64,000 nucleotides of DNA from Anaerolineae bacterium. GTDB lineage: Bacteria; Chloroflexota; Anaerolineae; Anaerolineales; Villigracilaceae. The notes under the pieces were generated by a model. It saw only the letters and a program-made list of their open reading frames with translations, was not told the origin of the DNA and ran no database searches. The translations under genes and the position numbers were made by a program. Position 1 is the stretch's first letter; every line of letters starts with the position of its first letter. The stretch is taken from assembly GCA_003130845.1 (NCBI GenBank), contig QEXW01000025.1:1962-65961 (forward strand), written 5' to 3'. This document shows positions 4,620 through 61,900 of this stretch, piece after piece.

Positions 4620-6293
4620 TCACTCGCCAGGGTCATTGGGCAAGGCAAACAAGGCACGCCAGTGACCAGGTTGTGTTTCCTGTAGCACAGAATGCAGGGT
4701 CATCAGGCTGAGCCAGGTTCGGCCGGGTTTGAGCGGAAAGGGTTGACGGTTCTGGCCGATGAAGTGTAGCGGGCGGAGCAAGCCGGTTTGTTGTTCCCAA
4801 GCACGGTTGGTGGTGCTCCAGCGGATTTTGTACATTTGTCCATCGCGAAATAAATACGCCCAGCCTTCCAGACCACAACATAAATCTATGTCATATTGCA
4901 GGTGACGATAGACTTGGTAATCGGCCAATACTACAATGATGTTTTCGAACGATAGTTGGCGTCCGGTCAAACGCTCGGTGTCAGGATGGAACACTCCTTT
5001 GCCGTCGGCATCATCGGTGAAGCGCAAGTAACTCCCTGAGAGCGGGTCAAAGACCCATTGTGATTGGGCGTATGCGTGGTAGTACACCCACAGGGTATTG
5101 GCCGGCTGTCCGTTTTCCGGTATAGCGAAATCGAAGCGGTTGCCTGAGTAATTGATTGGTTGACCAGGCTGTTTGCTGCGTTCGGCCAACGTGCGCATTC
5201 GGGATATATCTAGCAGTGCGGTGTTGGGGCTGATTTCGGGGTGTTCTCCGTAGATGATTTCGCAAATTTGTAACTGCGGCAGGATGTCGGTGCCGGCGCT
5301 AGCGAAGACCAAGCAGCTGAACGGGAACATCTGCCGAAAATCTTCGTAAGTTAACCGTCCGGAGCGGATGGGGCCAACGTAGGTGCGGTCAGGTGCAATG
5401 TCGTTGGGGTGCGGCGAAGGAAGCACGGTGAGGGGTTGTTTAAGCACCAAGCCGACATCCAGGTTAGGATTGGTTTGCGCGTGGTAGGTGAAACGGATGG
5501 TTGCCGTTTGAGGGTCGGCATCACTATCTGTTTCTTCTGCGCCCAGGTGAGCCGGGGCGAGGAGGTAGTGACTTGGGATGTCGAATTTCAATGTGTAATG
5601 GGTTGGGGAGGCAGCGTGTTGTAGATGTTGTGAAAACGAGAAGGCATAATAGCCATTCGAGTCGGTGCTGGTGCGTGCCAGTAGGTTCTCTTGAGAGTCG
5701 AGCAGCGCAATGCATATCCCACCAATCCCCACCTCCCAGGCGTTTTGTGTGCCATCGGCATTTTCATCAAGCCAGATTCGGTTTCCTATCCAAGGAGAGT
5801 CTGTTGATTGGAAGATTTGTTGGTTGATGGCGCAATGTCCGGTCAGGTTGGGGATGCGGCGAGGGTATTCTCCGTAGAAGACGCCCATGAAGCGGGTGGT
5901 GCCGGTGCCGATAAAGAGTTCAAATATCCAGGGGGCGAAGCCGGTGCCGGCTTGGGGACGGGCGGTGACCGGTAGGTTGCTGATGGAGACCAAGACGGCG
6001 GGCAGGTCGAGCAGGGATGGGTCGAGAACGGGTAAGCCGGTGAGCGGATTGGTGCCGGGGGCAAAATCCTGTGCTTCGGGGCCGGAGGCAAGCAAGGTTT
6101 GATGTGGTTGCAAGGTGGGGGTGGTCGTTGCCGTTGGGGAGGGGGTGAGCGTAGCCGGTGGTACGGTGAATGTAGATGTAACCAGAGCCGGTGGGTGTGG
6201 GCTTTTTTCTGTGGAAGGGGTAGCGAGAGCGGAGCACCCCATTAGCAGCGTGAACAGTAACGGAAAAAAGGCCGTTCTCAAGCACAAAGCCAT
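4620..6293 (-). CDS. DUF3048 (YerB-like) lipoprotein with inserted SdrD-B/Cna-B-like domain
   Basis: Lipobox LLMGCS. NPLTGLPV...NLPVTARPQAGTGFAPWIFEL...TTRFMGVFY resembles the DUF3048 N-domain. IWLDENADGTQNAWEVGIGGICIALLD...TDSNGYYAF is an SdrD B-repeat-like motif. Confidence 0.65.
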   Translation of the reverse strand: MALCLRTAFFPLLFTLLMGCSALATPSTEKSPHPPALVTSTFTVPPATLTPSPTATTTPTLQPHQTLLASGPEAQDFAPGTNPLTGLPVLDPSLLDLPAVLVSISNLPVTARPQAGTGFAPWIFELFIGTGTTRFMGVFYGEYPRRIPNLTGHCAINQQIFQSTDSPWIGNRIWLDENADGTQNAWEVGIGGICIALLDSQENLLARTSTDSNGYYAFSFSQHLQHAASPTHYTLKFDIPSHYLLAPAHLGAEETDSDADPQTATIRFTYHAQTNPNLDVGLVLKQPLTVLPSPHPNDIAPDRTYVGPIRSGRLTYEDFRQMFPFSCLVFASAGTDILPQLQICEIIYGEHPEISPNTALLDISRMRTLAERSKQPGQPINYSGNRFDFAIPENGQPANTLWVYYHAYAQSQWVFDPLSGSYLRFTDDADGKGVFHPDTERLTGRQLSFENIIVVLADYQVYRHLQYDIDLCCGLEGWAYLFRDGQMYKIRWSTTNRAWEQQTGLLRPLHFIGQNRQPFPLKPGRTWLSLMTLHSVLQETQPGHWRALFALPNDPGE

Positions 6294-55572: not shown

Positions 55573-55875
55573 ATGAATGTTAATTTTTATGCTACTCTGC
55601 GGCTGATTACCGGCAAGAAGACCGTTTCGCTTGACCATTTGCCCGACGGGGTGACCGTGCGCGAGGTGTTGGAGGAGTGTTTTAAACTGTATCCGGCGTT
55701 GCGGGCCGAGTTGATGAAAAATGACCAGGAAATGCTGGGGCATGTACATTTTTTCGTCAATGGGCGCGATGTGCCGTATTTGCCGGATGTGCTCGAGACG
55801 CGTATTTCACGCAGCGATAAGCTGGATGTCTTCCCGGCTGTGGGAGGGGGCAGCGGATGGGGCAACGGATGGTGA
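55573..55875 (+). CDS. MoaD/ThiS-family ubiquitin-like sulfur-carrier protein with a 7-aa extension after the Gly-Gly
   Basis: DKLDVFPAVGGG aligns with the MoaD C-terminus (..FPPVTGG). It continues SGWGNGW-stop, encoded by the first units of the tandem repeat. AGGAGA lies before ATG 55573. Confidence 0.7.
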   Translation: MNVNFYATLRLITGKKTVSLDHLPDGVTVREVLEECFKLYPALRAELMKNDQEMLGHVHFFVNGRDVPYLPDVLETRISRSDKLDVFPAVGGGSGWGNGW

Positions 55876-56188
55876 AGCGGATAAGCGGATGTGGGCAGCG
55901 GATGGTGAAGCGGATAAACGGATGTGGGTAGCGGATGGGGAAGCGGATGGTGAAGCGGACAAGCGGATGTGGGCAGCGGATGGGGCAACGGATGGTGAAG
56001 CGGACAAGCGGATGTGGGCAGCGGATGGGGCAACGGATGGTGAAGCGGATAAACGGATGTGGGCAGCGGATGGTGAAGCGGATAAACGGATGTGGGCAGC
56101 GGATGAGGAAACGGATAAGCGGATGGTGAAGCGGATAAGCGGCTAACTGGCTAACCGGCTAACCGGACAACTGGATAACTGGATAACT
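55854..56188. repeat. hierarchical tandem repeat: about 26 subunits (CGGATGTGGGCAG / CGGATGGGGCAA / CGGATGGTGAAG / CGGAYAAR) forming 45- and 33-bp units, then 6 x 8-bp GGMTAACY
   Basis: Read directly. 18 copies of CGGATG lie in 55854-56130. The 8-mers span 56141-56188 and end 6 nt before ATG 56195. Confidence 0.9.
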
Positions 56189-56194
56189 GGGTAG

Positions 56195-56452
56195 ATGAAA
56201 ACAATTGTCCACGAAATGCGCGGAATTCCGTTTTTCTTGCTTAAAGAATATTTGCAGGAGATGGGGGGCGAGTTGGTGAGCGTGGATGTGGTGCGCGGCG
56301 AGGGTTGGTCGGTGCGTCTGGAGCGGATGGAGCCATTCCGGCTCGGTTCGCTGGAAGTTGGTCAGACCCGCCTAACGATGGAATTGCGCGAAGATGTGGT
56401 GGATGATTTTCTGGAACGATTTCGATTAAAAACATTGCGCGCAGGGGGCTGA
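56195..56452 (+). CDS. small hypothetical protein ending in Gly-Gly
   Basis: 85 aa ending ...FRLKTLRAGG-stop. Family not securely recognised. No obvious RBS. Confidence 0.45.
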   Translation: MKTIVHEMRGIPFFLLKEYLQEMGGELVSVDVVRGEGWSVRLERMEPFRLGSLEVGQTRLTMELREDVVDDFLERFRLKTLRAGG

Positions 56453-58908: not shown

Positions 58909-61900
58909 CTACCTGTTTGCCTTTCGGCGCCAAGCCAGAACGGTGGCGATGCTCCAGCCCATCGCCAGGAGCCACACCGCCATCAATAGCCATGCCGCCC
59001 AAACCTGCGCAAAGGTTGACCATTCGATGGGCAAATTGCGGATTGTCCAGACTGGAATCAACCAATTCCATACCTTTAATAACCATTCTGTGCCAGGCAA
59101 GGCCATGCTTTCATTTGCTCCAGGCAAGAATACGAACACATATCCTGCCAGCGCGTACGTGCTTGCCCCCAGGACAAGCAAGGCAAGCACCCAATTTCTC
59201 CCCGCCGCCGAGCGGACCGACGGCCACACCAGCATGGCGCTTCCCGTCAATAAAAGGAGCAATCCAATTGCATCGAGGTAGATAGGGGTAGGCGCCTGCC
59301 AGGGATTCCAAAGGAACCAGGCGGAAAGCAGGGCGGCCGCGCCCGGCGTGAATGCCCCGACCCACCAGCGTGTCCTGCGATGCCCTTCCTGTTTCCAGCC
59401 TTTCCAAACCAGGCCGATGGCCAGGACGAACAAAGCGGCTGCCCCGGCGCCAAAGGCCGTTTTTTGCACGAGGATGGCGTGCTGCTTTTCGATTTCGTCC
59501 TCATCTGGAATGGGTTTATCAGGGCAGGTGGGACGATATGGCTCATCGCCAATATAGGTCTGCCACTCGGCAAGCGTCAAGTTGCGCGGCAGGCGGCGGC
59601 AGGCTTCGGCCATCAGGTCTGCGATGCGCCAGTACCACACGCTTATTCCGTCATCAAGACCGCTGGAAATCACATAGCGCCCATCTGGGCTGAAGGCGAC
59701 GAAGAGCACAAGGTTGTCATGCGTCATGCGCGCCACCTCCGCGCCCGTCTGTGCCTCCCACACCCGCGCCGTGCCGTCCTCACTCCCGGAGAGCACATAG
59801 CGCCCATCCGGACTAAAGGCGACTGATTGCACTGCTCCTTCGTGTGTGATGCGTGCCACTTCGGTGCCCGTCTGCGCCTCCCACACCTGCGCCGTGCCAT
59901 CGCCGCTCCCAGAGACCACATAGCGCCCGTCCGGGCTGAAAGTGCTAGATAACACGCCGCCTTTGTGTCTCATGTGCGCTACTTCTGCACCTGTTTGCGC
60001 CTCCCAGACTCGTGCTAGGCCATCCAAACTCCCGGAGAGCACATAGCGCCCATCTGGGCTGAAGGCGACGGAAAGCACGAAATTGTCATGCTTCATGCGT
60101 GCTACTTCTACGCCTGTCTGTGCCTCCCACACCCGCACTGTGCCGTCATAACTCCCGGAGAGTACATAGCGCCCATCTGGACTGAAGTCAGCTGAGCGCA
60201 CCTGACCCTTATGCGCCATGCGGGCTACTTCTACGCCCGTTTGCGCCTCCCACACCCGCGCCGTGCCGTCCTCACTTCCGGAGACCACATGGCGTCCATC
60301 TGGGCTGAAATCAACGATGACCACCGGCTCTTCATGCGTCATGCGTGCCACTTTCGCGCCTGTCTGTGTCTCCCATACATCTATCGTGTTGTCTGTATTC
60401 CCGAAGACTACATACTGCCCATCTGGGCTGAAAGCAATGGAGTTCACGCCGCTCTCATGTGCCATGCGTACTACTTCAACACCCGTCTGTAGATCCCATA
60501 CCCGCACAGGCTCATCCCAACTTCCGGCTGCCAAGTATCGCCCATTCGGGCTGATGGCAAAGTAGAGCTCGCTGCCCTCCGATGGAATGATTTGCAGTAC
60601 TTCTGCACCCGGCTGAAAATTCCACACTCGAGCCGTGGTAGTAGCTCCACCGGATAGTACATAGCGCCCATCCGGGCTGAAGGCAACGGAAGTCAAGCCG
60701 CTCTCATGCGTCATGCGCGCCACTTCCGCACCTGTCTGTGCCCACCATACTCGTGCCGTGCCATCCCCACTCCCGGAGACCACATAGCGCCCATCTGGGC
60801 TGAAGGCAACGGAGACCACTGGCCCTTCATGCGTCATGCGTGTCACTTCCGCGCCTGTCTGTGCCTCCCATACCCGTGATGTGTAATCATCACACCCAGA
60901 GACCACATAGCGCCCATCTGGGCTGAAGGCGACAGCCCACACATCACCGTCATGTGTTATGCGAGCCATTTCTGCGCCGGTCTGCGCCTGCCACACCCGC
61001 ACCGTGCCATCCCAGCTCCCGGAGACCACATAGCGCCCATCCGGGCTGAAGGCGACGGATGTCACATCACTCTCGTGCGTCATACGCGCCACTTCCGCAC
61101 CTGTCTGTGCTTCCCACACCCGCGCTGTGCCATCACTACTCCCGGAGACCACGTAGCGCCCATCTGGGCTGAAGGCGACGGAGTTCACCAAGCTTTCATG
61201 CGTGATGCGCGCTACTTCCACGCCGGTTTGTGCCTCCCAGACCTGCGCCGTACCGTCATCACCCCCTGAGAGCACATAGCGCCCATCTGGGCTGAAGGCC
61301 ACAGAAGTCACGCCGCTCTCGTGCGTCGTACGCGCCACTTCTGCCCCTGTCTGCGCCTCCCACATTCGTGCTGTGCCATCACTACTTCCAGAGACCACAT
61401 AGCGCCCATCTGGGCTGAAGGCCACGGAAGTCACACCGCCCTCGTGCATCATGCGCGTCACTTCTGCGCCGGTCTGCGCCTGCCACACCCGCGCTGTACC
61501 GTCCCCACTCCCGGAGACCACATAGCGCCCATCTGGGCTGAAGTCAACGGAGTTTACATTATCTTCATGCGTCAGGCTGGCAACAGGCAAGGCTGCCAGC
61601 GCGAGATAGCGGCGCAAAGCCTGGTCGGCGCCCCAGCCGGCGCCGCGCTGCCCGGCTTCCACAGCCAATAAACCACTCTGGGTCGTGAGATTTGCAACAT
61701 CAGCATAACCACCCTCAAACTCGATGGCAGTTTGCGCTTGGGCAGCTAGTTGGCGTGCTATGGCCAGATTGGCCTGTTGTTCGGCGCGACGCCACTGGAA
61801 AAGCGCCAAGGTAGTAATCACTAGTAGGATGGCTGAACCAACCACTAGACCGGCTGTAATGCGTTGGCGGGTGCGTTCCCGCTGGCGGCGGGCTTGTTCG

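Follow-up and report, generated by a model that had tools for sequence, protein, structure and literature searches.

A dispersed CGGA minisatellite family in an Anaerolineales genome includes the array between a ThiS-like gene and a DUF1952 gene

The CGGATG-rich array that separates a ThiS/MoaD-like gene from a DUF1952 gene is one member of a minisatellite family dispersed through the genome of an Anaerolineales bacterium. We consider it probable (roughly 0.7) that this family is a lineage-specific minisatellite that evolves by slippage and recombination and is tolerated where it is harmless, and that the array has no function specific to ThiS, DUF1952 or TetR. An earlier reading made from the sequence alone had treated the array as a feature of this locus. 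A search for further arrays found 51 CGGA chains genome-wide; near-identical arrays of such wide scatter are what that reading had itself named as a refutation, and the locus-specificity was abandoned.

Genome and array definition

The window is a 64-kb stretch of DNA, positions 1962-65961 of contig C151 of the source genome (G000). G000 is a 3.77-Mb MAG of 159 contigs with 53.9% GC, and among named genomes MAGs of Anaerolineales are the closest to it. As a short-read assembly, it may understate array lengths. Arrays were defined genome-wide as chains of at least 6 CGGA units. Genes were called with a home-made ORF and hexamer scorer, which is crude and doubtful near N-termini; the arrays in C17, C76 (5710), C74 and C36, which were scored as genic near N-termini, probably lie in 5′ leaders. 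The relative G016 is the same record as L001, isolate H39_479.

Structure of the array and its surroundings

The features of the locus are as follows.

55573..55875, + strand: ThiS/MoaD-like ORF, 100 aa (Pfam ThiS PF02597, E 4.9e-11)
55835..55853, + strand: junction at which the native P-A-V-G-G-G codons run into a partial unit, GGGGCAG
55854..56139, + strand: CGGATG minisatellite array of 12-mers (CGGATGGTGAAG and CGGATGGGGCAA), a 13-mer (CGGATGTGGGCAG) and an 8-mer (CGGAYAAR), in 33- and 45-bp higher-order units
56141..56188, + strand: octamer array, 6 x GGMYAACY (Tandem Repeats Finder and direct parsing)
56195..56452, + strand: DUF1952 ORF, 85 aa, with a Gly-Gly end (Pfam DUF1952 PF09189, E 2.9e-6)

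Direct parsing resolved the 286 bp from 55854 to 56139 into 26 abutting head-to-tail units of 12, 13 or 8 nt, all CGGA-initial and with nothing left over, which bears out the array described from the sequence alone. The unit lengths are 12,12,8,13,12,8,13,12,12,8,13,12,12 for units 1–13 and 8,13,12,12,8,13,12,8,13,12,8,12,8 for units 14–26. CGGATG occurred 18 times in these 286 bp against approximately 0.12 expected, and 27 times on the + strand in the remaining 63.6 kb of the window. Tandem Repeats Finder (TRF) reported an array at 55843-56136 with periods of 12, 33, 45 and 78 and an 8-bp array at 56133-56190; the window arrays at the ThiS-DUF1952 junction scored 142-321.

The + strand of the array is 74% purine and 47% G. 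Two of its frames had been said to stay open; only one (DGATDGEADKRMW) is fully open, whereas the GQRMVKR frame contains 3 stops and the third frame 12. On the minus (C-rich) strand, none of the three frames contains a stop, a point that had been missed. The earlier suggestion that the 33- and 45-bp periods point to coding compatibility held, and these periods are explained at the level of the family, because the 13-mer plus the 8-mer (21 nt) is a coding-compatible form that is common throughout G000. The array RNA folded less well than all 100 shuffles (z +3.57), and no Rfam family, promoter or terminator match was found in the spacer. By direct reading, the G3+ runs in the window array were 33-45 nt apart, and no four G3+ tracts lay within quadruplex distance. 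The units abut without spacers and the array is non-palindromic with the above fold score, in agreement with its earlier description as neither CRISPR nor REP-like. True CRISPR arrays of G000 are located in C152 and at the end of C55.

The six octamers already seen in the sequence were recovered here with the consensus GGMYAACY, ending 6 nt short of the ATG. In order, they are GGCTAACT, GGCTAACC, GGCTAACC, GGACAACT, GGATAACT and GGATAACT, followed by GGGTAG and the ATG at 56195. A genome-wide scan found 16 octamer arrays, which form a second, companion family; 12 of the 16 lie in sense orientation in the short gaps that separate co-directional genes, frequently 3-14 nt 5′ of a start codon. The best reverse-strand octamer 9-mer, TTATCCAGT, had 2 mismatches to TTATCCACA by direct reading. 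A cluster of DnaA boxes or iterons (17-22 bp) was rejected; dnaA is on a different contig, C12, and the octamer family is dispersed.

Other tandem repeats were also observed. In the window, TRF found a 123/369-bp repeat of 15.5 copies at 59671-61574, inside a large minus-strand ORF. Elsewhere, G000 carries 42-44-bp units with an internal palindrome (CCCCTCGCCCTGCGGGAGAGGGG...), CGGAATG-based heptamers and CACGAAT-based arrays; example sites of these families are C38:8758-8974, C87:80053-80300, C49:1005-1168, C153:435-554 and C119:14517-14897.

History of the ThiS-DUF1952 junction

The ThiS-like ORF ends in ...PAVGGG-SGWGNGW*, with its stop at 55875. The segment 55835-55853 encodes PAVGGG, as previously noted, and the last 7 codons (SGWGNGW) and the TGA stop derive from the repeat array. 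The ThiS orthologues in all relatives examined stop directly after GGG with TAA, TAG or TGA. Compared with G002, G016, G001, G007 and SKYG2, the ancestral stop codon after GGG is missing in G000, and in G000 only it is replaced by the first unit (GGGGG-CAGC-GGATGG vs GGGGG-TTAG-GAATGG in SKYG2).

The junction differs widely among the relatives. The array is absent in G007, where the ThiS stop overlaps the DUF1952 start as ATGA (GGTGGATGAAAACC), and in G001 and G003, where stop and start overlap as TAATG. The G002 junction holds approximately 220 bp of CGGATGCAAAG and CGGAGAAG units. The G016 array exceeds 500 bp, is made of CGGATGAAG-CGGAGAAA-CGGACG-CGGAAA units and is divided between two contigs, and SKYG2 has a spacer of 112 bp that is irregular in make-up. 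In these three genomes, DUF1952 has its start codon within a terminal ...AAGCGGATGAAAAC CGGATG unit. The proposed length-variable spacer is thus real between species, with lengths of 0, 112, ~220, ~320 and >500 bp. This comparison shows overlap of the ThiS-like stop with the DUF1952 start as the ancestral state, and growth of the array at that junction. Because these codons overlap in array-free relatives, the ancestral pair would have been translationally coupled. The comparison also shows that the array in G000 has overwritten the ThiS stop and added a predicted 7 aa after the C-terminal Gly-Gly-Gly. The SGWGNGW tail should block C-terminal activation of the ThiS-like protein unless it is cleaved.

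Both flanks of the array are single copy and collinear with those of the relatives. Among the intergenic arrays of G000 with a sense upstream gene (n=11), the array started between -30 and +20 nt from the stop codon of that gene. An exact-protein lookup of DUF1952 for other assemblies of the same species gave no match. Metagenomes were scanned with two queries: the 3′ flank of ThiS, which gave no match either, and an array word, which gave only one unrelated contig with a short CGGAT patch. This patch, on Ga0265327_10013109 (L062) at 4700-4900, is intergenic and reads CGGATGGTGAAG CGGATAAG CGGATGGGAA CGGATGG.... It indicates that the CGGA unit grammar also occurs beyond this genus.

Genome-wide distribution of the CGGA family

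The 51 chains of the CGGA family in G000 represent approximately 44 loci on many contigs and amount to at least 9.7 kb. Twenty-two chains touch contig ends, and 7 pairs match as two halves of a single array. BLAST with the window array returned approximately 40 other places at 75-90% identity over up to 284 bp, of which the array in purF was the best (86% over 284 bp). Each array has 10-46 units. The unit census comprised 423 12-mers (CGGATGGGGCAG, CGGATGGTGAAG and others), 193 8-mers (mostly CGGATAAG) and 104 13-mers. The 12-mers (CGGATGNNNNNN), the 13-mers and the 8-mer CGGATAAG share a CGGA core, and the octamer GGATAACY is related. On our own gene calls, intergenic DNA makes up approximately 11% of G000, yet it contains 23 of the 47 larger arrays (p 1e-10). 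No similar DNA was found in plasmids.

Large surveys have found bacteria to be generally poor in tandem repeats (PMC12699852), so a free-living Chloroflexota genome with approximately 44 arrays of one satellite is unusual. G000 is generally repeat-prone. Loss of mismatch repair was rejected as the cause of expansion, with MutS and MutL intact, and templating by a reverse transcriptase was not supported, as an RVT_1 gene was not found in G000 or G016. Two adjacent ORFs with MutS domain V (536 and 505 codons; C16:60313-62327) were observed in G000 only among five genomes.

Arrays inside genes

According to the home-made scorer, approximately half of the arrays lie in frame within long ORFs with conserved sequence on both sides. 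The array-bearing ORFs include PurF, acetyl-CoA synthetase (Acs), an FGGY sugar kinase, HisH, photolyase, a P450, a GlnE-like protein, a GT2 glycosyltransferase, several membrane proteins and a PurD-PurM ORF. These arrays would be read as inserts of 20-150 residues, e.g. in PurF and HisH. PurF aligns to its B. subtilis counterpart in two blocks, residues 12-282 with 1-269 and residues 407-580 with 272-450, and the 124-residue segment that separates the blocks has only 2 residues opposite it in the B. subtilis enzyme. With the C-rich strand as sense, the arrays encode the peptides PSASPSVAPSAA/DIRLSAS or HPLPHPLP; with the G-rich strand as sense, they encode ADGEADKRM. The predicted insert peptides include ADGEADKR and SASPSVAPSAAPSA (PurF, HisH and the kinase).

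The C-rich strand was sense in 24 genic arrays and the G-rich strand in 4 (p 0.14 against 0.75). This 24:4 split agrees with 3:1, the ratio predicted when only frames without stops are retained. Of 24 genic arrays, 23 had a best higher-order period divisible by 3, vs 11 of 23 intergenic arrays (Fisher p 2.6e-4). The sole genic exception (C17) is probably located upstream of the true start codon.

At C37:52043-55285, a single ORF of 1081 codons consists of PurD, a CGGAT array, a GxxExxY-like (PD-(D/E)XK-type) segment and PurM, and ORFs of more than 1000 codons with the same PurD-to-PurM order occur in G001, G002 and G016. The FGGY kinase (C104:25140-26993) has a 148-residue insert unique to G000, which replaces approximately 15 native codons; what is replaced is LRPEIAAKTGAGLIP in G016, just before the conserved VIAPACHDTGSAV motif. 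A kinase carrying this insert may be impaired.

Strand polarity

The G-rich strand of the arrays lay on the strand of positive GC skew in 42 of 44 arrays, as calculated from the flanking 15 kb on each side (p 1e-10). The bias persisted in flanks more than 500 bp away (56/67). Moreover, the third-codon-position (GC3) skew of neighbour genes of both orientations was shifted by approximately +0.2 toward the array strand. Neither dnaA nor highly expressed genes gave a clear signal of an origin by which the skew could be linked to the leading strand. A Chi- or KOPS-like polar word was rejected: AGCGG, GAAGCGG and CGGAT were no more strand-skewed outside the arrays than words of the same composition.

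The GC skew of G000 is itself a mosaic of domains of approximately 10-20 kb that reach +/-0.2 independently of gene orientation, and it is uniformly positive at 47-58 kb of the window. The mean sense-strand GC3 skew of G000 genes was -0.107. AGGATG, the second most polar hexamer outside the arrays, was on the G-rich strand in 80% of cases vs 66% for words of the same composition (z 10.6).

Turnover and homogenisation among relatives

A three-unit CGGAT pattern occurred 181 times in G000, and four congeners had 19, 5, 4 and 1 occurrences. G003 and G025 each had one, and the remaining 34 genomes of the search had none. Flank-only queries of six genomes located inserts at the same positions in G001, G002, G007 and G016 (80-94% amino-acid identity). 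The shared sites were PurF, the GlnE-like protein, two membrane proteins, photolyase, Acs and the PurD junction, with inserts of approximately 20-110 residues. The same queries found no inserts at these sites in the more distant G008 and G012.

The orthologous arrays in the relatives are built of CGGAGAAG, CGGAGGAAG, CGGAGTGGACAA and CGGATGAAA, and all G000 loci of CGGATG 12-mers and CGGATAAG. The sharing of 10-mers was 0.335 between different loci within G000 and 0.084 between G000 arrays and their orthologues, against a background of 0.092. It was 0.09-0.10 between different loci within each relative and 0.25 at the same locus across relatives. G016 is closest to G000 by protein identity, and its arrays are nearer to those of G001 and G007 than to those of G000. 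These values show that the G000 arrays resemble other loci of G000 more than their own orthologues, the mark of genome-specific homogenisation. Locus-private variants persist in the G000 arrays, which argues against assembly collapse.

Proposed mechanism and alternative explanations

We infer that replication slippage and unequal recombination lengthen and shorten the arrays. The homogenisation across loci in G000 would arise by gene conversion between arrays, RecA being present. Arrays would be kept only where they are harmless, at gene junctions or in permissive loops; in such loops, reading would follow either the C-rich strand, which has no stops, or the single G-rich frame that is open, with a period that is a multiple of 3. 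At the present locus, the likely side effects are lost translational coupling, a masked ThiS C-terminus and 320 nt of unstructured purine-rich intercistronic RNA. Slippage with RecA-mediated conversion alone leaves unexplained the strand polarity in 42 of 44 arrays, as well as the use of one CGGA grammar at approximately 44 sites and the homogenisation in G000 only. Furthermore, inserts that persist in essential enzymes across species of 80-94% identity could be not purely neutral. We also considered, as an unlikely variant, that the approximately 44 sites are fixed "slots" that are rewritten by a dedicated, genome-specific and replication-polar process rather than by passive slippage. Candidates for it are gene conversion with a strong bias, in which a master array serves as donor, and template-directed synthesis where breaks occur. 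If true, it would amount to a genome-wide rewrite to the CGGATG 12-mer grammar in the G000 lineage, and it would explain both the polarity and the greater likeness between loci than between orthologues.

The same polarity, with its persistence in the far flanks (56/67) and in the GC3 skew of neighbour genes, and the uniform unit vocabulary across G000 would also suit functional polar DNA elements that are kept for a genome-level role as replication, segregation, recombination or nucleoid-protein sites. We regard this as improbable: the orthologous arrays use different units, so that no fixed binding word is conserved; AGCGG, GAAGCGG and CGGAT are not extra strand-skewed outside the arrays; the length at one site ranges from 0 to more than 500 bp; and the surroundings of dnaA show no clear origin by which the skew could be tied to the leading strand. 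The binding array for TetR or another locus-specific protein that had been suggested from the sequence alone is not supported, because the CGGA family is genome-wide and also intragenic. Equally local would be an expression device, in which a length-variable, unstructured and purine-rich leader sets DUF1952 translation after uncoupling from ThiS. The array does fill the whole intercistronic gap and, with its octamers, ends 6 nt before the ATG; the DUF1952 start lies inside a terminal CGGATG unit in G002, G016 and SKYG2; the RNA is significantly unstructured (z +3.57); and octamer arrays elsewhere stand 3-14 nt before start codons. However, the same repeat DNA is also present within coding regions and at numerous junctions of unrelated genes, overlapping genes without a spacer suffice in relatives, and by direct reading the ATG at 56195 lacks a strong Shine-Dalgarno sequence, all of which makes such a device quite improbable. 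These results leave no case for a regulatory element linked to ThiS, DUF1952 or TetR.

A repeat-protein gene, cryptic or decayed and translated into ADGEADKRMW repeats (ORF 55721-56146), had also been proposed and is very unlikely. One + frame is open for 141 codons and the same peptide repeat is read in PurF, Acs and two other genes; however, this ORF begins within the ThiS gene, out of its frame, and was passed over by the coding-potential scorer, open frames are intrinsic to the units (all 3 minus-strand frames being open as well), and the whole spacer is missing in G001, G003 and G007, where the flanking genes overlap. A collapsed or chimeric repeat path in the short-read assembly has some basis in the 159 contigs and in the 22 contig ends within arrays. 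We nevertheless hold an artefact to be highly improbable, since the array is bordered by single-copy sequence that is collinear with relatives, MAGs produced independently in other studies have arrays at the same junction and at the intragenic sites, and locus-private variants are retained. GGATG is a FokI-type recognition word, and the array places many GGAUG motifs on an unstructured RNA. Both a CsrB/RsmZ-like RNA sponge (approximately 26 GGA motifs) and a set of GGATG restriction-modification targets are nonetheless very unlikely. The CsrA gene (PF02599) was not found in G000 and four relatives, with the controls detected, and the unstructured RNA does not present GGA in hairpins; the sponge was rejected on these grounds. 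No match to the FokI cleavage domain (PF09254) was found, in a search in which no control genome was positive either, and GGATG is not avoided (1.6 per kb per strand vs approximately 1.0 expected).

Significance and comparison with known repeat systems

The CGGA family offers a compact natural system in which to follow the birth of satellites at gene junctions, concerted evolution among the dispersed arrays of a bacterium and the protein loops that accommodate long disordered inserts. It also has practical consequences. The arrays break short-read assemblies, as at the 22 contig ends; they extend or fuse ORFs, as in the ThiS tail that masks the Gly-Gly end and in the single PurD-to-PurM ORF; and they inflate the protein lengths in databases. 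Potentially, they are good strain-typing markers for Anaerolineales.

Of the repeats described so far, the long simple sequence repeats (LSSR) of prokaryotes and certain G-rich heptamers come nearest to the CGGA family. LSSR are defined as repeats of 1-11-nt units with a sporadic phylogenetic distribution, in which units or periods that are multiples of three are those found in coding regions (Mrazek, Guo & Shah 2007, as summarised in PMC4679880). The CGGA arrays are alike in being tandem head-to-tail, far longer than chance, phylogenetically sporadic and of multiple-of-three period in genes. They differ in that the units are mostly 12-13 nt with 8-mers, only the 8-mers and octamers falling within the 1-11-nt range; in the 33- and 45-bp higher-order units and arrays of approximately 500 bp or more; and in one grammar shared by approximately 44 loci, with genome-wide homogenisation and strand polarity. 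Xanthomonas and Nostoc carry the G-rich heptamers GGGNATC and GGGGA(C/T)T, STRR-type repeats that prefer four copies, are 89-93% intergenic, show no leading/lagging preference and form G-quadruplexes (Rehm et al. 2015; PMC4692102). Like them, the CGGA family is dispersed and G-rich and lies between co-directional genes near the upstream stop at conserved positions. In contrast, its units are 8-13 nt long with 10-46 per array, approximately half of the arrays are intragenic, and the family is strongly polar; the window array has 26 units, without four G3+ tracts in quadruplex distance. The CGGA family is therefore distinct from both LSSR and the heptamers in unit size, hierarchy, array length, genic share, polarity and homogenisation.

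Mycobacterial interspersed repetitive units (MIRU) and Rickettsia palindromic elements (RPE) share single features only with the CGGA family. MIRU occupy approximately 40 loci as 40-100-bp tandem units in operon gaps, vary in copy number and have frame-compatible lengths, and they contain short ORFs that overlap the neighbouring genes at their stop and start codons. The present array is likewise intercistronic, between co-directional ThiS-like and DUF1952 genes that overlap in relatives. Its open frame (55721-56146) differs in ending 49 nt before the ATG at 56195, without overlap, and MIRU have no sequence similarity to the CGGA arrays. MIRU are not known to be built of 8-13-nt subunits or to occur as large in-frame inserts in enzymes. 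RPE and intragenic REP/MITE are selfish repeats that persist in frame in permissive loops of housekeeping genes. RPE are single palindromic elements that spread as copies, whereas the CGGA arrays are non-palindromic (z +3.57) and tandem, growing in place and varying in length between species. Eukaryotic minisatellites and higher-order repeats exhibit hierarchy, locus-private variants, homogenisation between loci and rapid divergence between species. The CGGA family resembles them in its hierarchical units, private variants, homogenisation within the genome and fast divergence, and differs in that its arrays are bacterial and short and that many are situated inside essential genes, where they are predicted to be read in frame.
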